DNA of 64,000 bases from Candidatus Falkowbacteria bacterium (GCA_013336275.1 JAAXUA010000004.1:47460-111459); one strand, 5' to 3'; counted from the stretch's first letter, positions 5,734-43,860 are shown. Translations and numbers: made by a program. Notes: a model not told the origin generated them from the sequence alone.

Positions 5734-5790
5734 ATGTATATGAGCTTAAAATTATTAGCGAACAAAAGCAGCCCCCCCCCTCTGGAAGCT

Positions 5791-6510
5791 TTACTGCTTT
5801 TCAGTGGTTGTCGGAGCGACCTTAGCCTTGTCACGGCCGGTCTGGAGGGCCTGTCCGACGAGAGCCAAGATCATCTTGATGGTCTTGGTCGCATCGTCGT
5901 TCGACGGTATGATATGAGTGATGTTTTGCGGATTGACGTTGGTATCGCAGATGGCGATGATCGGAATCTGGCGCTTCAGGGCTTCGGTAACGGCAGTCTC
6001 TTCTTCCTTGATGTCCCAAACGAACATCATGTCAGGAGCCTTGTTCAGGTTGACCAAGCCGCCGACCTTCTTGTCCAGACGGGCGATCTCGCGATCGATC
6101 TGCAAACGTTCTTTCTTGGTATACTTGTCCAGCTTGCCAGCTTCTTTTTCAGCTGTCAGCGTCTTGTACTTCTGGATCGCCTTGCGGATGACGGCGAAGT
6201 TGGTGATGGTGCCGCCCAGCCAGCCTTCATTGACGAAAGGCATGCCAGACTCTAAAGCGACCTGCTTCAGCGAAGCCTTGACCTGGGTCTTGGAACCGAC
6301 CAAGAGGACGGTCTTGCCGTCAGCGGCAGCCTGTTCAAGGACGTTCAAGGCCTCGACCAGCATGCGGCGGCTTTTTGCCAGGTTGATGACGTGCACGCCG
6401 TTGCGTGAACCGAAAATGTATGGCGCCATCTTGGGGTGCCATTTGGAGGTGCGGTGGCCGAAATGCATACCAGCCTTAAGCATTTCCTCCAGTGTTGGGA
6501 GTTCGTACAT
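5791..6510 (-). CDS. rpsB: 30S ribosomal protein S2
   Basis: 239-aa ORF with the MLKAGMHFGHRTSKWHPKM motif, in conserved rpsB-tsf order. Confidence 0.95.
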   Translation of the reverse strand: MYELPTLEEMLKAGMHFGHRTSKWHPKMAPYIFGSRNGVHVINLAKSRRMLVEALNVLEQAAADGKTVLLVGSKTQVKASLKQVALESGMPFVNEGWLGGTITNFAVIRKAIQKYKTLTAEKEAGKLDKYTKKERLQIDREIARLDKKVGGLVNLNKAPDMMFVWDIKEEETAVTEALKRQIPIIAICDTNVNPQNITHIIPSNDDATKTIKMILALVGQALQTGRDKAKVAPTTTEKQ

Positions 6511-21138: not shown

Positions 21139-21236
21139 GACTCAATCTCCTTTGTGATAGTTATTTTTTACAACTAGCTTAGTTTAAGGAAAATTTGATT
21201 TTATACCATAACACATTACTATTATTTTGTCCATCA

Positions 21237-21425
21237 TGCCCCATTAGGACAGGAGCTCACGCCTCACCAGTCCGCCGTCGCGGGCTGGTTCGTTGCCCTG
21301 GGCAGCGCAGAAGTGATTCCCATCACTTCTGCGGCGCTCGACTGCGATGTTGCTCTGGTGAGCAACATCTTGCTCACTGCTGCCCGCCTGCCTGCCGGTA
21401 GGCAGGTTCGAGTCCCATTCCAAAA
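21237..21425 (+). ncRNA. candidate structured RNA of unknown class (array of perfect hairpins)
   Basis: Four hairpins: 21267-21288 (9 bp), 21306-21333 (12 bp), 21346-21369 (10 bp) and 21391-21406 (6 bp), with a terminator immediately 3'. The only ORFs here are mutually antisense and implausible. Strand is assigned from a single T-G wobble. Confidence 0.3.
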
Positions 21426-21426
21426 T

Positions 21427-21474
21427 CAATAATAAAAAGGAGCACTTCTGACGAAGTGCTCCTTTTTATTATTG
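21427..21474. terminator. perfect 22-bp inverted repeat (loop TGAC) acting as a bidirectional terminator
   Basis: CAATAATAAAAAGGAGCACTTC / GAAGTGCTCCTTTTTATTATTG. The GC-rich inner stem has U-runs in both orientations. Confidence 0.7.
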
Positions 21475-21546
21475 GCTCGGGGATAGGGACTCTCACCGGG
21501 GCGGAAGCCCCACGCCTCACGCATTAGTTTTCTTTCGGCCCTATCC
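21475..21546 (-). other. orphan tRNA-Gln 3'-end fragment embedded in a ~66-nt stem-loop with a GGGGC-TTCC-GCCCC hairpin
   Basis: An 18-nt exact copy of 21591-21608. An 8-bp closing stem pairs 21481-21488 with 21539-21546. The 16-mer at 21498-21513 is identical to 43621-43636. Confidence 0.6.
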
Positions 21547-21558
21547 ACAAACAAAACA

Positions 21559-21584
21559 AAATCAGCCCCAGAAGGGACTGATTT
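21559..21584 (-). terminator. terminator hairpin trailing tRNA-Gln
   Basis: AAATCAG(T)CCC-TTCT-GGG(G)CTGATTT followed by a T-run on the minus strand. Confidence 0.65.
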
Positions 21585-21591
21585 CATTTTG

Positions 21592-21662
21592 CTCGGGGAT
21601 AGGGACTCGAACCCCAATTGACGGGACCAGAACCCGCTGTCCTACCATTAGACGATCCCCGA
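21592..21662 (-). tRNA. tRNA-Gln (anticodon CUG)
   Basis: Hand-folded: acceptor TCGGGGA/TCCCCGA, D arm GTCT-AATGGTA-GGAC, anticodon arm GCGGG-TTCTGGT-CCCGT, T arm TGGGG-TTCGAGT-CCCTA, discriminator G. CCA is not encoded. Confidence 0.85.
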
Positions 21663-37603: not shown

Positions 37604-37647
37604 ATTCGCTTCAAAAAAACTCCGCCGTGGGGCGAAGTTTTAGCTTG

Positions 37648-37720
37648 AGCCAGCTAAGGGGCTCGAACCCATGACCCGCAGTTTACAAAACTGCTGCTCT
37701 ACCAACTGAGCTAAGCTGGC
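37648..37720 (-). tRNA. tRNA-Thr (anticodon UGU)
   Basis: Hand-folded: acceptor GCCAGCT/AGCTGGC, D arm GCTC-AGTTGGTA-GAGC, anticodon arm GCAGT-TTTGTAA-ACTGC, T loop TTCGAGC. There is one T-stem mismatch. Confidence 0.85.
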
Positions 37721-37770
37721 TTATAAAAACAATGTTCTTATAATAGGTTATTTTACCGAACTAAGCAAGC

Positions 37771-38994
37771 CTAGCGCCTGCGTCCGCCACGGCGGAAGGC
37801 GGTCGGCCTGGCTCCGCCCATGCGGCCGTACAACGAGGCCTTGGGCTGGGCAGCAGGCTTGATCAGCTGAGCAAATTCCTTAAGAGGCAGATCTTTCTTG
37901 ATCAGTTTCTCGATATCGCTAATGTCCTTCCATTGGGTCGGCAAGGCGAAAGAGATAGCTTTGCCTTTCTTACCGGCGCGCGCGGTGCGGCCGATGCGGT
38001 GGACGTAATCCTCGGTCGAGTCAGGCAGATCGAAGTTGACGACCAGCTCGATATCATTGACGTCGATGCCGCGAGCGGCGATGTCGGTGGCAACCAAGAT
38101 GCGGTATTTGCCTGATTTGAATCCGCCCAGAGCTGCCTTGCGCTGCTCAAACGAGCGGTTGGAGTGGATTTCCGCCACGCCGAAGCCGAGTTTGTCGATA
38201 TTCCTAGTCAGAGCCTTAGCTCCGTGTTTAGTGCGAGTAAAAATCAGGACTGAACCATTATACTCATCGAGCATCTTGGTCAGCTGGTTGAAGCGGTCTT
38301 CCTTGTTGACGACATAGACTTCCTGGTCGACGCGCTCGGCAGTGGTGCCGGCGGGGGCGACTTCGATAGTCAACGGCAATTTCATGTGCTTATTGATCAA
38401 GCGCACGATCGTGGCCGGCATGGTAGCCGAAAATAGCATCGTCTGGCGCTCCTTAGGCACCTGGCTCAAAATCTCCTCAACCTGAGGAATGAAGCCCATG
38501 TCAAACATCATGTCTGCCTCATCCAATACCAAAGTATTGACATTGCGCAGACTCAGAGTCTTGCGATTATTAAGATGGTCGATCAGACGCCCAGGCGTTG
38601 CCACGATGATGTGGGGGTTAGCCTCGATCTGCTTGACCTGCTTGCCGATCGGTTCGCCGCCGATCAAAGAGGCAGTGCGCAGACCGAGCTGTCTGCCGAG
38701 CTTCTGCAGGTTCTCATCGACCTGTAACGCGAGTTCGCGGGTCGGCAATAGAACTAGGCCGTTACCCTTGGTTTTGCCGATGCGTTCGAGCATCGGAATG
38801 CCGAAGGCAAAGGTTTTGCCGGTGCCGGTCTGGGCAATGCCGATGATGTCGTTGCCATCGAGTGCCGATGGAATCGCCTTGCTCTGGATCGGTGTCGGCG
38901 TTTCCAGATTAAGTTTTTCGAGTACGTTAAGAATACTTGTGCTGATGCCCAAGTCGCTAAAACGCACTGCTTGTGAAGTGTTGTGTTCTTGCAT
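37771..38994 (-). CDS. DEAD-box ATP-dependent RNA helicase
   Basis: Q motif (TPIQ), AQTGTGKT, DEAD (VLDEADMM), SAT and HRIGRTARAG. I prefer the ATG at 38994. Confidence 0.92.
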   Translation of the reverse strand: MQEHNTSQAVRFSDLGISTSILNVLEKLNLETPTPIQSKAIPSALDGNDIIGIAQTGTGKTFAFGIPMLERIGKTKGNGLVLLPTRELALQVDENLQKLGRQLGLRTASLIGGEPIGKQVKQIEANPHIIVATPGRLIDHLNNRKTLSLRNVNTLVLDEADMMFDMGFIPQVEEILSQVPKERQTMLFSATMPATIVRLINKHMKLPLTIEVAPAGTTAERVDQEVYVVNKEDRFNQLTKMLDEYNGSVLIFTRTKHGAKALTRNIDKLGFGVAEIHSNRSFEQRKAALGGFKSGKYRILVATDIAARGIDVNDIELVVNFDLPDSTEDYVHRIGRTARAGKKGKAISFALPTQWKDISDIEKLIKKDLPLKEFAQLIKPAAQPKASLYGRMGGARPTAFRRGGRRR

Positions 38995-39090
38995 AAAAAA
39001 TAGGTGACCCGACTTCTCTGGGACCACCTATGCTTTTATATATAACACGGATAAAGACGAGAGATTCGAATCTGATTTAATTGATAAGCA

Positions 39091-39119
39091 AATCATAGCA
39101 CGAAGCCATTATTTTGTCA
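39091..39119 (-). promoter_or_regulatory. promoter TTGACA-N17-TATGAT with TGC extended -10, driving the DEAD-box gene
   Basis: Minus-strand hexamers at 39119-39114 and 39096-39091, giving a leader of about 95 nt. Confidence 0.55.
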
Positions 39120-39140
39120 AGGTAAACCGCCAAAACGAGC

Positions 39141-40616
39141 CTAATCAGTTGAATAAACCCGGGCATTAAGCTGCCAGCCCTCGGGGTTGGTTTCTTTCAA
39201 TTCCTTGAATTCCCTTTCGATGTCTGCCATCCATCTGCCATCCACTTTTTTGAAATAAGTCTTATCCCGTCCGCCCGGTTCGCGATAACCGTTTTCATTG
39301 GAGAATCGATAATATTCTATCGCCACACCGCCCTCATCGACGTCCTGCTGCTTGTAGATTACTATAGCGCCGACATTGTCCTTGGTCATGCCCGAAAATA
39401 CCTTGTTTTTGAAGCGGCGCTTGAATCCTTCAAGGTCGGTCTGGAAGTTGGGTTTGATAAAATCATCGATGAACGATTGAGGGTAATAAAAAATCGATTC
39501 ATAAGCTTCAAGCTTGCCGCTCGCAATAGCATGCTCCATATAATAAAGCGCGATTTCCGGCGAAGTGAAGGGATTGAAAACGCCCTCGCCAGCAGGGTCG
39601 TCTCCTAGCGCCGCCTCAGCGCCATCGGTCACGCCGCTGCCGTCGGTGTCGGCCAACAAGGGGTTGGATTTATAGATGCTGACTTCTTCATAATCGCTCA
39701 AGGCATCGTTGTCGGTGTCGGTACTAGTTGAACTGGTTTTATACTTTAAGCTCTCCTCGCTATCAAGCAAACCGTCCCTATCCTTGTCGCGCATTAATTT
39801 TTCGTGATTATGCTCAGGCATCGAAGAGTTGGATATCTTCCTGGACTGCGTCCCCATGTTCCTGATCAGCTCCTCCGGGCTCTCCTGCGCGCGCATTTGC
39901 GACTCGAAATCATCGATGAACTGCCGATTCTGCAGATTAAGGAAACCGGAAACTATCGTGACCGCAAAAATAACCGAGAATGCGAAATTGATACCGACAA
40001 AAGCTTGCTTGCTCCAGCGCCTTACTGCATATGCGGAAATAGCAAGCCATGCGGCAACGATTGCCAGCAACACTGCCTTTAAGGAGGACGAGGCTTTCAA
40101 GGTATTGGCTAGCTCCTTGTTTTTTAATAACCCGGAAAGGACGACAAAAATCAATATCAGCGTTATGACCAAGGAATTTGCAGCCTTGGGCGTGCCAATG
40201 GCGGGAACAGTGATTTTATCTTGGCTTAGCTTAACTTTGAATCCGTCAGCCTGGATTTCTCCGGGCGTTCCAGGACTAGGCTGGGGCGGGACGTTTTGTG
40301 CCGGGTCGATGCCAGCGATCTCGGCTGTAGAAACTTTTGATAAGCGGTAAAAGACATAGACGAAGGCAGCGAAGATGAGGGGGTAAACCGCAGCTTCGAC
40401 CGCGTCCGATTTGACGAGTCGGCCCAGGATATATTGCAAGCTCAATATCAGAACGGTAAAACCAGCTAGCGCAATCTTTAATTGCTGGGCGAAACCCGAG
40501 CTGAGCTTGATTTTCGTGCCGCATTGCGGGCACGGAAAACCGTTCTTGCCGTTCCGTTCCTTATTTAAGTTCAATTTGAAATAATTGAACTGATGCTGGC
40601 ATTGGGGGCAGATCAT
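39141..40616 (-). CDS. membrane protein with an N-terminal zinc ribbon and thrombospondin-type-3-like Asp-rich repeats
   Basis: CPQC...CPQC at the N-terminus, several TM helices, and DKDRDGLLDSEE / DTDNDALSDYEE / DTDGSGVTDGAE repeats. Confidence 0.65.
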   Translation of the reverse strand: MICPQCQHQFNYFKLNLNKERNGKNGFPCPQCGTKIKLSSGFAQQLKIALAGFTVLILSLQYILGRLVKSDAVEAAVYPLIFAAFVYVFYRLSKVSTAEIAGIDPAQNVPPQPSPGTPGEIQADGFKVKLSQDKITVPAIGTPKAANSLVITLILIFVVLSGLLKNKELANTLKASSSLKAVLLAIVAAWLAISAYAVRRWSKQAFVGINFAFSVIFAVTIVSGFLNLQNRQFIDDFESQMRAQESPEELIRNMGTQSRKISNSSMPEHNHEKLMRDKDRDGLLDSEESLKYKTSSTSTDTDNDALSDYEEVSIYKSNPLLADTDGSGVTDGAEAALGDDPAGEGVFNPFTSPEIALYYMEHAIASGKLEAYESIFYYPQSFIDDFIKPNFQTDLEGFKRRFKNKVFSGMTKDNVGAIVIYKQQDVDEGGVAIEYYRFSNENGYREPGGRDKTYFKKVDGRWMADIEREFKELKETNPEGWQLNARVYSTD

Positions 40617-40646
40617 TTGTTTTTATATTTATCGGTTAGGGCTCGG

Positions 40647-41687
40647 CTATTCGCTCTTTTTGACCGGATTGGCCTTGAGCTCGGCTAGAAGCTCGGCCAT
40701 GCTAACTTTGGCGGCGGCGATACGCGTGTCAGCCGCGCCGTAATAGATATAGAGGTCGTCACCGAACTGGGCGGTGCCGGTCGGGAAGACGACGTTGTTG
40801 ACCAGCCCGACCGACTCGGCTTCATTCGAGGGGGTAAATAGCGGATATGGCAGCTTGCCGATCAGCTTGCCCGGATTTTCCAAATCCAGCAGAGCGGCGC
40901 CGGCGCTATAGGTGCGGGCCGCGTTGTTCTCGTGCACGCCATGGTAGATCATGAGCCAGCCGTCGGCGGTCCTGATCGGCGGGCAGCCGCCGCCGACGTT
41001 GCGCTCTTCGAAGGTATATTCGCTTTCCAAAACCACATTGCTGGCTAACTCATCCAGAAGGTAATGGATCCAAAAGTATTTTTCCTTGAACTGGCCGAAG
41101 TCGTCGAAGGTGACCATCTGGATGTCCGGCAAGATGCGCTGGAGCATTTTGAACTGGCCGCCGATCTTTTCCGGAAACAGGATGCAATCCTTGTGCCAGA
41201 TCAGGATGTTCTTGCCGCTGAACTCTTTGTAAAAAGCTTCGTAGAAATAATAATCGTCCTTCAGCTTCTGGTAACGGAAAATCTCAGCCGCTTCCTTGTA
41301 CATGATTTTCGGACTGACCATGTGCCCGCGCGAGAGCTCGAACAGGCTCGGTCCCTCGGCGAAATAGGTCACGGCGTTCTTGCCGTCGTGCGCCACGTAA
41401 GTCATATAGTAAGTGCCATCAATCTTAACGATGCGCGGGTCCTCGATTCCTTTGCTCTCCGCCTTGAGTTTCGGCACCATAAACGGCTTGTTCCAGCGCT
41501 CAACGACCGTCGTTGGTCCGGAAAGCCTGGCATAGCCGAGGCAGGACATATACTCCTCGTCAATCGCACGATAAATGATATGGACATCGTTGCCATCCTG
41601 GAAGACGCCCGGATTCAAGACAGCCCGAGTTTCGAAAGCGTTCTGGGTCGGCTCCAAGATCAAGCCTAATTTTTGTACATTAACCAT
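40647..41687 (-). CDS. glycoside hydrolase family 130-like protein (beta-mannoside phosphorylase fold)
   Basis: 346-aa ORF with NPGVFQDGNDVHIIYRA, GIEDPRIVKIDGTYYMTY and YYGAADT beta-propeller motifs, recognised by eye. Confidence 0.7.
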   Translation of the reverse strand: MVNVQKLGLILEPTQNAFETRAVLNPGVFQDGNDVHIIYRAIDEEYMSCLGYARLSGPTTVVERWNKPFMVPKLKAESKGIEDPRIVKIDGTYYMTYVAHDGKNAVTYFAEGPSLFELSRGHMVSPKIMYKEAAEIFRYQKLKDDYYFYEAFYKEFSGKNILIWHKDCILFPEKIGGQFKMLQRILPDIQMVTFDDFGQFKEKYFWIHYLLDELASNVVLESEYTFEERNVGGGCPPIRTADGWLMIYHGVHENNAARTYSAGAALLDLENPGKLIGKLPYPLFTPSNEAESVGLVNNVVFPTGTAQFGDDLYIYYGAADTRIAAAKVSMAELLAELKANPVKKSE

Positions 41688-42215
41688 AAGCTGAGATTAT
41701 TTCTTAGTTATCCATATTATATCATTTACCCTAAGCCTGGCCAAATACTCGACGTTTTAAAATTAATAACTATGGGGACAATAAATATTAAAGCGCCTAC
41801 AAAAAACACAAAAAGAATATTAAAATACGGACTGGGAATACTCGTTAAATCACCGTTACCCTCCAAACATTACTCCCATGAAAGCTGAACTTATCTTGCT
41901 ATCCAATTTTTAGTCACAGAAAGACTAACCACCATCGTGCTTTGACAGAAAAATAATTGTTATTTGCATTAATTTATTTAATTTTTAATCTAGCTGTCGA
42001 TTATTCATTTGTTGTTTAATGACTAATTTTGTGATAAATTGTAGGGGAAAATGACAGCAAGTGCTAAAGTTAAAATCGGAAATTTTTTTTCTTTATTCTC
42101 TGGTAATTGATCTGATATCCTTATCAATCGCTAGAAATATTTTGTACTAACTATATTTTGCAGATATTGGGTGTCAGTTTTTTTATTCTGCCACCTTCGC
42201 AACTCACTTAAACTT

Positions 42216-42677
42216 ATGCAATATAATCAAGGCATTGAAAAACAAGTTAAGGAATATAATTCATTGGATTGGAAAAATTCATACAGAAAACAATCGGCGC
42301 TTATTTTGCGCATATCAGCATGCGTGGTTATTTTGGCAAGCTTCCTTGGGGGCAACCCAATGTCTATTGTCGTCGCCATTGTCCAGCAATTAATAACTTT
42401 TATTCCCCTGTCATTTTTTATAACAATGGGGAAACGCTGGTCACTTGTAGTAACACTTTTTTTGTGGACATATGCCTTTATCACTGAAGTTGCCTCGTAT
42501 ATGGCCAACATTCAAAAAACAAGGAACATTACTTATGGAGAGTTTAAAATTATCCTAGCTGCAGCTGCTTTATACTTTTTCACCATGCGCATATTTATAA
42601 AGGCCTTAAGGGTGGAAAATGAGATACGACACGGCCAAGAAGATAAAAAAAACTCTTTCCAAGACAGCTCTAAATAA
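42216..42677 (+). CDS. hypothetical membrane protein encoded in the AT-rich island
   Basis: ATG at 42216 (the track begins at the GTG at 42171). It has four hydrophobic helices. Confidence 0.5.
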   Translation: MQYNQGIEKQVKEYNSLDWKNSYRKQSALILRISACVVILASFLGGNPMSIVVAIVQQLITFIPLSFFITMGKRWSLVVTLFLWTYAFITEVASYMANIQKTRNITYGEFKIILAAAALYFFTMRIFIKALRVENEIRHGQEDKKNSFQDSSK

Positions 42678-42763
42678 CCAACAATTTTTTACTTAACTGT
42701 AATACTATTTTTTTAATATCTGCCTTGATCAAATAAATTATCATAATCATCCTTAAGTCTCAT

Positions 42764-43489
42764 ATGAATATTAATAAACTAATAAACATTGGCCAAACTG
42801 GTGAGCTAAATAACCAAGAATTTAGTAGAAAGTTTTTATTCTCACTGCACAGAAACCCATTTGTAAAAACATTACCGTTAGAAGATTTAGTAAATCTTAT
42901 GCGGGGACTGGCAATCATAGAGACACAAGTCGAATACGGTTTTGGCAGCACCACGGTTATGGGTAAATTACTCAATATATTAATATCAAGAACAAGACAT
43001 GACGAAACACTATTAAACCACTTTGTTGATTGGGCTCTAGCAAATAGAACAAACCCCTACATTCCTTTTGGAACCAACGTACCAATTGAAATTAAATCAA
43101 TAAAAGAGCTTGCTGCACATGATAAGAAGCATTGGGAGCACATCGAAAAGATGGAAAAAGAAAAAATAGAAAGATCGAGAATAGCAAAGGAGAAGAAAAT
43201 AAAAATTATCCAGGAACATAAAAATAATGCAAACCTGAAAAACCAAGAGCGTGACAAAATTATAGAGAATCTAAGCAGACTTGATGTCATGAACCGTTTT
43301 GCATATATAATTAGATCTGAAAAGCCAATAGATTTTTTTCCAGAAAAATATGCCAAAGTGTCGTCAAAGGACTTGGCAAAAATACCCAAAATAACAATTG
43401 AGTTATTGTCACAAAAACTCAAATACTCCAAAAGGAATAGCGACTGGAAAAAATTACAAAAAATAATTAAACAAAGACCAGTAGAATAA
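42764..43489 (+). CDS. hypothetical Lys/Glu-rich protein encoded in the AT-rich island
   Basis: 241-aa ORF with a central charged coiled-coil-like stretch (KKHWEHIEKMEKEKIERSRIAKEKKIKIIQEHK). No recognisable domain. Confidence 0.5.
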   Translation: MNINKLINIGQTGELNNQEFSRKFLFSLHRNPFVKTLPLEDLVNLMRGLAIIETQVEYGFGSTTVMGKLLNILISRTRHDETLLNHFVDWALANRTNPYIPFGTNVPIEIKSIKELAAHDKKHWEHIEKMEKEKIERSRIAKEKKIKIIQEHKNNANLKNQERDKIIENLSRLDVMNRFAYIIRSEKPIDFFPEKYAKVSSKDLAKIPKITIELLSQKLKYSKRNSDWKKLQKIIKQRPVE

Positions 43490-43597
43490 GGTGCTGAATA
43501 CAATTTTTCACAGGACACTATCTATGAGTGCTTGAATTTTGACTGCTAGCCAAAACGCACAAATAAAATAGACCTCCGATTGGGAGGCCTATTTTAT

Positions 43598-43685
43598 TTG
43601 TGCGCCCACAAGGACTCGAAGGGGCGGAAGCCCCACACCACCGAAAGGTGACACAGTATTATATATTTTTTTAACCAATAAGCAA
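43598..43685 (-). ncRNA. candidate small RNA unit: promoter, then GGGGC-TTCC-GCCCC hairpin, then orphan tRNA-Lys 3'-end copy, followed by a terminator hairpin at 43557-43603
   Basis: Minus strand: TTGCTT (43685-43680), N16, TATAAT (43663-43658). The 23-nt stretch 43598-43620 is identical to 43785-43807. A 21-bp terminator hairpin lies at 43557-43603. Confidence 0.45.
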
Positions 43686-43787
43686 AAAGCACATTTCGAT
43701 ATTCTGAAACGTTCCTTTTACAAGATTCTCGAAGCTTATAAACCCACAAAATAAATCAGACCCCGAAATGGGGTCTGATTTATTTTG

Positions 43788-43860
43788 TGCGCCCACAAGG
43801 ACTCGAACCTTGGACCTTGTCCTTAAAAGGGACCTGCTCTACCAACTGAGCTATGGGCGC
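43788..43860 (-). tRNA. tRNA-Lys (anticodon UUU)
   Basis: Hand-folded: acceptor GCGCCCA/TGGGCGC, D arm GCTC-AGTTGGTA-GAGC, anticodon loop CTTTTAA, T arm CAAGG-TTCGAGT-CCTTG, discriminator A. CCA is not encoded. Confidence 0.88.

Follow-up and report, generated by a model that had tools for sequence, protein, structure and literature searches.

The stretch of DNA analysed here, referred to as the window, comprises 64,000 nt of a Candidatus Falkowbacteria bacterium (GCA_013336275.1 JAAXUA010000004.1:47460-111459) and has three tRNA genes, each encoded on its minus strand: tRNA-Gln(CUG) at 21591-21662, tRNA-Thr(UGU) at 37647-37720 and tRNA-Lys(UUU) at 43787-43860. The tRNA-Lys gene is intact, being called by ARAGORN and matched by Rfam RF00005 at 70.7 bits, and has its own promoter-like site, TTGTCA-17-TAATAT (43941-43913), which was called by the promoter scan. 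Directly behind it lies a cassette of about 190 bp, the parts of which follow one another on the minus strand in the order tRNA gene, a first hairpin (T1), an inverted copy of the tRNA tail (A'), an AT-rich spacer, a GGGGC-TTCC-GCCCC hairpin (H1a), an orphan tRNA tail and a second hairpin (T2).

T1 (43745-43789, minus strand) starts with the last bases of tRNA-Lys and is an inverted repeat with 20-bp perfect arms, made up of the trailer and an inverted copy of that trailer; it was missed by the terminator scan because its stem is trailed by only four T residues. A' (GTGGGTTTATAAGCTTCGAGAATCTTGTA, approximately 43719-43747, minus strand) was found by locally aligning the DNA with the reverse-complemented tRNA tail and is a degenerate inverted copy of roughly positions 47-73 of tRNA-Lys, carrying mostly C to T changes. 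The AT-rich spacer that follows in the sequence (43637-43718, minus strand) places this cassette in the longer of two size classes and contains a small hairpin, CACC-TTTC-GGTG (43639-43650), together with the promoter-like sequence TTGCTT-N16-TATAAT (43685-43658). Homology between the spacer and the tRNA body is absent in both orientations, and the idea that long-class spacers are an inverted whole tRNA was ruled out, with z-scores around 0. H1a (minus strand GTGGGGCTTCCGCCCC, 43621-43636) is the signature of the family described below and directly abuts the T-loop of the orphan copy (43598-43620, minus strand), an exact 23-mer beginning at T54 of tRNA-Lys and extending past the discriminator by CAA, its source being positions 54-73 and CAA of the intact gene. 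Between the two direct repeats lie 164 nt (43621-43784), with a start-to-start spacing of 187. T2 (43556-43604, minus strand), detected both as an inverted repeat and by the terminator scan, is an intrinsic-terminator-like paralogue of T1 with 75% identity; its 22-nt arms are 95% complementary, and the minus-strand terminator call consists of a 20-bp stem followed by GTTTTGG. On the 3' side of T2 a second and more decayed inverted copy of the tRNA tail (GTGCGTTTTGGCTAGCAGTCAAAATTCAAG, 43531-43560, minus strand) can be read by eye against the expected reverse complement, a weak assignment.

An earlier note on this DNA had described the distal half of the cassette as a self-contained small RNA gene running from promoter to terminator. 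The elements on which it drew are all present and non-random: 43598-43620 is indeed an exact 23-nt copy of 43785-43807, of a kind that never occurred in 100 shuffles; the 16-mer shared with the tRNA-Gln locus directly adjoins the orphan copy at 43621-43636; and the terminator hairpin at 43556-43604 is called by the minus-strand scan. This 16-mer, GGGGCGGAAGCCCCAC, is found exactly twice in the window (43621-43636 and 21498-21513) against a shuffle expectation of 0.06. The note's view that the orphan unit is not a tRNA was also borne out, as the only tRNAs that ARAGORN and Rfam identify in the window are the three intact ones, and a permissive Rfam scan of 43480-43790 returned only spurious miRNA or leader matches. 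The promoter fared less well: TTGCTT-N16-TATAAT is located at 43685-43658 as described, but its -35 element matches the consensus at only three of six positions, the promoter scan made no call there, and it has no counterpart in the related loci L027, L028 and L029, where the spacer is barely alignable. With a promoter that is weak and without conservation in relatives, the reading as a self-contained transcription unit is not supported, and some 30 short-class copies of the same arrangement leave essentially no room for a promoter of their own. Transcription of the orphan tail and T2 in the window would depend on read-through or on the weak promoter nearby.

The recurrence of the design at the tRNA-Gln locus, which the note had also pointed to, was recovered by repeat and hairpin analysis as a short-class cassette (21475-21590, minus strand) behind tRNA-Gln(CUG), with the same order of parts as at the Lys locus and a much shorter spacer. 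Its minus-strand parts are T1 (21553-21590), A' (21538-21553) followed by a linker to H1a, H1a itself as the shared 16-mer (21498-21513) and the orphan copy (21475-21497), in which the T-loop TTCG is changed to TGAG. Beyond the terminator T2 (21428-21473) comes one more Gln tail, inverted and degenerate (21407-21427), which directly adjoins a GC hairpin of another sequence, CCTGCC-GGTA-GGCAGG (21391-21406), within a GC-rich run from 21387. This tail and its hairpin have the look of an earlier cassette layer; a hairpin similar to CCTGCC-GGTA-GGCAGG is also found in L021 and L024, and L038 has a third Gln fragment. L021 and L038 share the Gln cassette at about 95% conservation, although its flanks have diverged. 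Further out, the region 21230-21427 contains, considering both strands, a GC-rich three-way structure (21300-21385) and a GAACC-plus-hairpin motif near 21260-21300; it too looks like older layers of the same process, and the third Gln tail of L038 lies in the corresponding place. Nothing comparable was found behind tRNA-Thr in the window.

Searching one genome per species with a pattern of a GC hairpin followed by a T-loop yielded 25 loci, compared to about 1.5 expected by chance on a hand estimate, and a metagenome scan added 47 more. After de-duplication 55 cassettes remained, all of them in Patescibacteria-type contigs, and the non-coding matches of the genome scan came from Patescibacteria MAGs in every case. 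The Lys feature in the window is thus not a lone small RNA unit, as had been supposed, but one of 55 non-redundant cassettes that show gain, loss and decay; more exactly, it is the distal half of a small, non-coding cassette that is specific to Patescibacteria tRNA loci. An adjacent, same-strand tRNA gene lies upstream in 48 of the 55, representing 20 isoacceptor types, and this neighbouring gene is intact. The hairpin is found at one of two fixed distances behind the gene end, about 75 nt (68-82) or about 150 nt (138-159), the one outlier at 179 spanning a run of N. T54 (+/-2) is the starting point of the orphan tail, which matches exactly over a median of 22 nt and ends 1-3 nt past the discriminator; in at least 35 of the 48 cassettes with a neighbouring gene it shows no difference from the local tRNA, and unusual local T-loops, namely TTCAATT in L013 and TTCGATT in L037, are copied into it. 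A' is present in every cassette and absent behind cassette-free tRNAs (median score 24 vs 16). This proximal inverted copy covers the T arm and usually also the acceptor strand and trailer, and so forms a hairpin with the gene's own trailer. The core of each cassette combines a short linker with GGGGC-TTCC-GCCCC or a variant of it, and the direct copy lies on its gene-distal side.

H1a is identical across the 55 non-redundant cassettes, and stem-keeping variants are known from L028, L013 and L032, where a hairpin termed H1b (GTGGGGTTTAACCCC) takes the H1a position; in L025, L027 and L073 the same position is held by a ATGCCCCGRAGCG..GGGGTA hairpin. Paired hairpins whose stems are kept despite different sequences are found in L081 and L082, and L083 has a single short hairpin. 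Exact-hairpin copies number at most two to four per MAG. Tandem arrays with two or three tails occur in L025, L027, L032 and L058, long near-identical repeats in L029, L058 and L062, and decayed orphan tails in L014, L024 and L026. The arrays and long near-identical repeats fit unequal crossing-over between repeats.

Some of the MAGs that carry cassettes are labelled 'uncultured Gammaproteobacteria' (L008, L010, L012-L014, L017, L021 and L026) but have Patescibacteria synteny: L010 also has the dnaB / tRNA-Lys gene order of Patescibacteria, and L021 is nearly identical to the window Gln locus. These labels look wrong.

The DnaB of the window is identical to a Candidatus Falkowbacteria protein. 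At the Lys site a cassette is found at the syntenic position in relatives whose DnaB is 81-94% identical to that of the window, a result in favour of the earlier note, which had called for a search of relatives for synteny of the unit. Long-class cassettes are found in L027 (DnaB 94% identical), between tRNA-Lys and the downstream genes, in L028 (90%), with the H1b hairpin, and in L029-L031 (81%). Comparing the window with L027, L028 and L029, the hairpin core and orphan tail are kept while the spacer can barely be aligned. In L086, a Falkowbacteria relative with a 79% identical DnaB, T1 and A' are kept and the hairpin and tail have decayed. When dnaB-linked tRNA-Lys loci were drawn from DnaB homologues, without selection for the hairpin, six out of ten had some form of the cassette. 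L027 also has, at 5751-5860, about 90 nt inserted between the conserved promoter and tRNA-Lys compared to the window. A Logan contig with an identical dnaB (L001, SRR11449212) ends 237 bp upstream of the gene, at the tRNA-Lys/cassette region, which suggests that cassette repeats break short-read assemblies at tRNA loci.

Turnover among close relatives is seen at loci where tRNA-Lys is followed by tRNA-Thr. L084 has an empty site, with 35 nt between the two genes, whereas an H1a cassette occupies it in L010 and L076, whose DnaB proteins are 97% and 95% identical to that of L084, and a two-hairpin version in L082 (90%). In L010 and L076 the sequence that aligns with the L084 spacer is the trailer of the intact gene, encoded CCA included, so that the proximal copy has kept the ancestral CCA and trailer and the orphan copy is therefore, in this single filled/empty comparison, part of the inserted block. 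That block consists of an inverted T arm, linker, hairpin, orphan tail and T-rich tail. A candidate flanking duplication of 6-9 nt, GT(T)TAAATT, can be seen between L010 and L084, but it is weak, being one pair in AT-rich DNA. In many Patescibacteria tRNA-Thr(UGU) lies no more than 10-35 nt, or one cassette, downstream of tRNA-Lys(UUU) (L007, L010, L015 and L081-L084), whereas in L027 and in the window (37647-43860) approximately 5-6 kb, comprising a DEAD helicase, a GH130 protein, a membrane protein and an island, separates the two genes; DNA has therefore accumulated behind the Lys cassette.

One conceivable origin for a second tRNA tail would be the tandem duplication of a tRNA gene, with the downstream copy having lost its 5' two-thirds. 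The earlier note had argued against a decaying tandem copy on the grounds that flanking homology was absent. Simple tandem decay is indeed disfavoured, but the grounds were mistaken, for 43553-43620 matches 43740-43807 with 75% identity over 68 nt, through the terminator and with compensatory stem changes, in addition to the inverted copy. This long direct repeat, together with the near-identical repeats of L029, L058 and L062, is what speaks for a tandem duplication; such an origin does not account for a break at T54 (+/-2) in all 55 cases, always beside the same hairpin, nor for a spacer without tRNA-body homology, and an inverted copy is not a product of tandem duplication. We regard this origin as extremely improbable.

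A direct repeat from the tRNA T-loop to the tRNA 3' end is also the att signature of elements that integrate into tRNA genes, for which Williams, in 2002, is reported to have defined sublocations within the gene. By this account an island or prophage with an integrase entered the T-loop and brought a replacement 3' end, leaving the orphan tail as the displaced original, and was later mostly deleted. The repeats, with their median of 22 nt, have the right form, and variable DNA lies beside them in the window, where an AT-rich island (41690-43550, 33-37% GC vs about 52% elsewhere) directly adjoins the Lys cassette. Pfam gave no match for either of the island's two ORFs, which lie on the plus strand and encode 168 aa and 241 aa, and in the window island there is no recombinase and no further tRNA tail marking a far end. 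L027 has three other genes, including VKOR, in place of this island, and the site beside the Lys cassette is therefore a variable region. In L011 it is the orphan copy and not the proximal one that runs into the next, ancestral tRNA gene, with a shared 12-nt trailer, as expected of a displaced original; this is the opposite of the layout in L010, where the comparison with L084 makes the proximal trailer ancestral in one clean pair, and the direction of insertion may therefore differ between cases. A real island is known from L072 (4725-11800), where 6.9 kb lie between tRNA-Ser(GCU) and an older tRNA-Ser cassette. Two DNA methylases and a restriction enzyme of the TdeIII type are encoded there, as is a large serine recombinase of 530 aa that overlaps the 3' end of the tRNA. 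Lying between the tRNA and a pre-existing cassette, this island is a separate event.

The cassettes themselves, however, have no gene between the repeats in any of the 55 cases and keep to their fixed lengths of about 75 or 150 nt, and the use of one core with 20 tRNA types is not explained by a tail brought in by the element. No viral contig matched the H1a, H1b or H3 junction patterns. Clustering of the ORFs around the first 31 loci (L032-L078 were left out) revealed no recurrent recombinase, transposase or reverse transcriptase, the only recurrent neighbours being the syntenic housekeeping genes dnaB, ybaB and recR found with tRNA-Lys. An origin as a classical att scar thus appears improbable to us.

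A more substantial alternative is that the cassette is a functional RNA, either an independent small RNA or a cis-acting part of the tRNA transcript, in which the inverted copy would pair with the real tRNA 3' half or with the orphan copy in a read-through RNA, or in which a tiny ORF (MxxWGFRPFES...) would be translated through the hairpin. Several features are in keeping with this. Hairpin and orphan tail outlast the spacer in the window, L027, L028 and L029, stems are kept with different sequences (L081 vs L082, H1a vs H1b), and a strong terminator follows the orphan tail. Relative to a perfect complement, A' has accumulated 70 C to T or A to G changes, 12 G to A or T to C changes and 94 transversions, meaning that 70 transitions preserve G·U pairing on the tRNA-sense strand and 12 are of the opposite type. 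Within the T-loop complement there is a repeated, convergent change from ATTCGAACC to a purine-rich, Shine-Dalgarno-like (A/G)GAGAACC. A single T-stem base pair distinguishes L010 from L076, and in each of them both arms of the cassette match the cassette's own tRNA, a concerted change. The read-through RNA of the window Lys locus is predicted to fold strongly (z = -10.5), with the real tRNA tail paired to A' and the 5' acceptor strand to the orphan tail.

The frame through the hairpin and T-loop, TGG GGC TTC CGC CCC TTC GAR TCC, encodes W-G-F-R-P-F-E-S in all cassettes (in the window at 43594-43650 and 21428-21529), and the H1b variant reads V-G-F-N-P-F-E-S with two synonymous changes. An ATG, GTG or TTG codon lies one to five codons upstream in this frame in 37 of the 55 cassettes, compared to 13 and 9 of the 55 for the other two frames, and in the short class a purine-rich, Shine-Dalgarno-like stretch is found 7-11 nt before the start codon. 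In L027, L029, L025 and L007, however, the hairpin frame has no start codon, and the two-hairpin versions have no conserved ORF. We therefore treat the micro-ORF as an observation in need of explanation and not as the explanation itself, since several cassettes lack a start and the other hairpin families have no common ORF.

Against a functional RNA in general stand the empty site in a relative with 97% identical DnaB, the decay in L086 and of tails elsewhere, the low number of exact-hairpin copies per MAG, the weak and unconserved promoter and the absence of an Rfam family: at the gathering threshold no cassette match was obtained in the window, rtT/tyrT RNA (RF00391) included, and at E <= 10 nothing but spurious matches to miRNAs or leaders came from the Lys and Gln loci. 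The transition bias could also stem from deamination of the non-template strand. RNA-level selection, a mutational bias of the non-template strand and repeated re-copying from the gene are each possible sources of the RNA signals. We consider a functional RNA rather unlikely, although it is an alternative to be taken seriously.

A more specialised proposal treats the unit as guide-like, with the hairpin as a repeat-like handle and the next 20-23 nt as a guide to the tRNA gene for an RNA-guided protein, for instance in homing next to tRNA genes. The geometry does resemble that of a type V crRNA, in that a 5-bp stem and 4-nt loop are followed after 0-2 nt by the putative guide, which matches the local tRNA and keeps a constant distance to its target. 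Near the first 31 loci, however, there is no recurrent ORF of the cas, tnpB or iscB-like kind, the inverted copy has no role in such a scheme, the copies tolerate decay and several unrelated hairpins play the same part, all of which makes a guide RNA very unlikely.

The best explanation for these observations, which in our judgement is about evenly poised between right and wrong, is that the cassette is an insertion-type repeat, non-autonomous, which takes the sequence of its arms from the tRNA gene next to it. Such a cassette would spread as selfish DNA, and its arms would be copied on either side of the core, with the neighbouring tRNA gene serving as the template. Copying would be primed at the near-palindromic T-loop (TTCGAA), which would be the reason why a single core can be combined with any tRNA. 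Arrays would be generated, or cassettes deleted, by unequal crossing-over between the repeats at a later stage. A more speculative variant, to which we attach a low probability, is a self-tailoring element, in which the core is conserved and both arms are written and updated from the adjacent tRNA, so that the RNA would be a hairpin with the tRNA 3' third as its stem and might act on tRNA biology, for instance as a read-through sensor, as an antisense-arm decoy or as a guide for a protein.

In Patescibacteria the only reported insertions in tRNA genes are group I introns in the anticodon loop at position 35/36 (PMC13011429), and these can be ruled out as a source, since introns at that position are unrelated to the cassettes. 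Literature searches brought up no report on duplicated tRNA tails, hairpins or MITEs of this sort in these bacteria, and the kind of cassette reported here is apparently undescribed.

Several known systems share some of its features. The att repeats of tRNA-integrating islands and prophages likewise consist of the 3' part of a tRNA from the T-loop, leave the gene intact and have variable DNA beside them, whereas the cassette encodes nothing, has a fixed size of about 75 or 150 nt, uses one hairpin for 20 tRNA types and includes an inverted copy of the tRNA tail, and its orphan copy belongs to the insert in the one test available. The repeats at the 3' side of E. coli tyrT, associated with rtT RNA (RF00391), are 178-bp units at one locus, each with the last ~19 nt of the tRNA, and are thus also direct repeats downstream of a tRNA gene that carry the tRNA end; unlike the cassettes, they have no conserved GC hairpin at the junction and no inverted copy and have not spread to other tRNAs. 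REP/BIME sequences, Correia and other MITEs, Rickettsia palindromic elements and mitochondrial GC clusters are similarly short, non-coding, GC-rich hairpins in AT-rich intergenic DNA, and repeats of the REP or MITE type are multi-copy, gene-less and polymorphic for presence or absence. In the cassette, by contrast, only about 16 nt are conserved, the arms come from the neighbouring gene and differ from copy to copy, and the location is strictly at tRNA 3' ends in fixed distance classes.

Neurospora has variants of the Mauriceville and Varkud retroplasmids that capture tRNA sequences through template switching and insert at tRNA genes; here too, GC-rich palindromes become linked to the 3' sequence of a tRNA, by copy-choice synthesis, and a duplication results at a tRNA gene. 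That system is mitochondrial, dependent on reverse transcriptase and of plasmid scale, whereas the cassette copies lack CCA. Type V-K CRISPR-associated transposons use a homing crRNA, in which a hairpin handle is followed by a short match to a tRNA gene and which lies near that gene; this order of handle and tRNA-matching stretch, close to the gene, is also that of the cassette, but the latter is tiny, has an extra inverted copy and has no Cas12k or transposition genes nearby in the first 31 loci. To our knowledge, none of att sites, tyrT/rtT repeats, small hairpin repeats or tRNA capture in Neurospora joins a conserved core with direct and inverted arms derived from the target at a fixed distance from many tRNA genes.

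A practical consequence is that the repeats of these cassettes may be mistaken for att sites of islands or for sRNA genes. Patescibacteria genomes are streamlined to about 1 Mb, and a non-coding module that recurs at essential tRNA genes in such genomes needs explaining. If the cassette is selfish, it would target tRNA genes yet leave them unbroken, and would do so with no recombinase of its own, as a small mobile repeat whose ends are supplied by its target; if it is functional, it would represent a new tRNA-linked RNA element.
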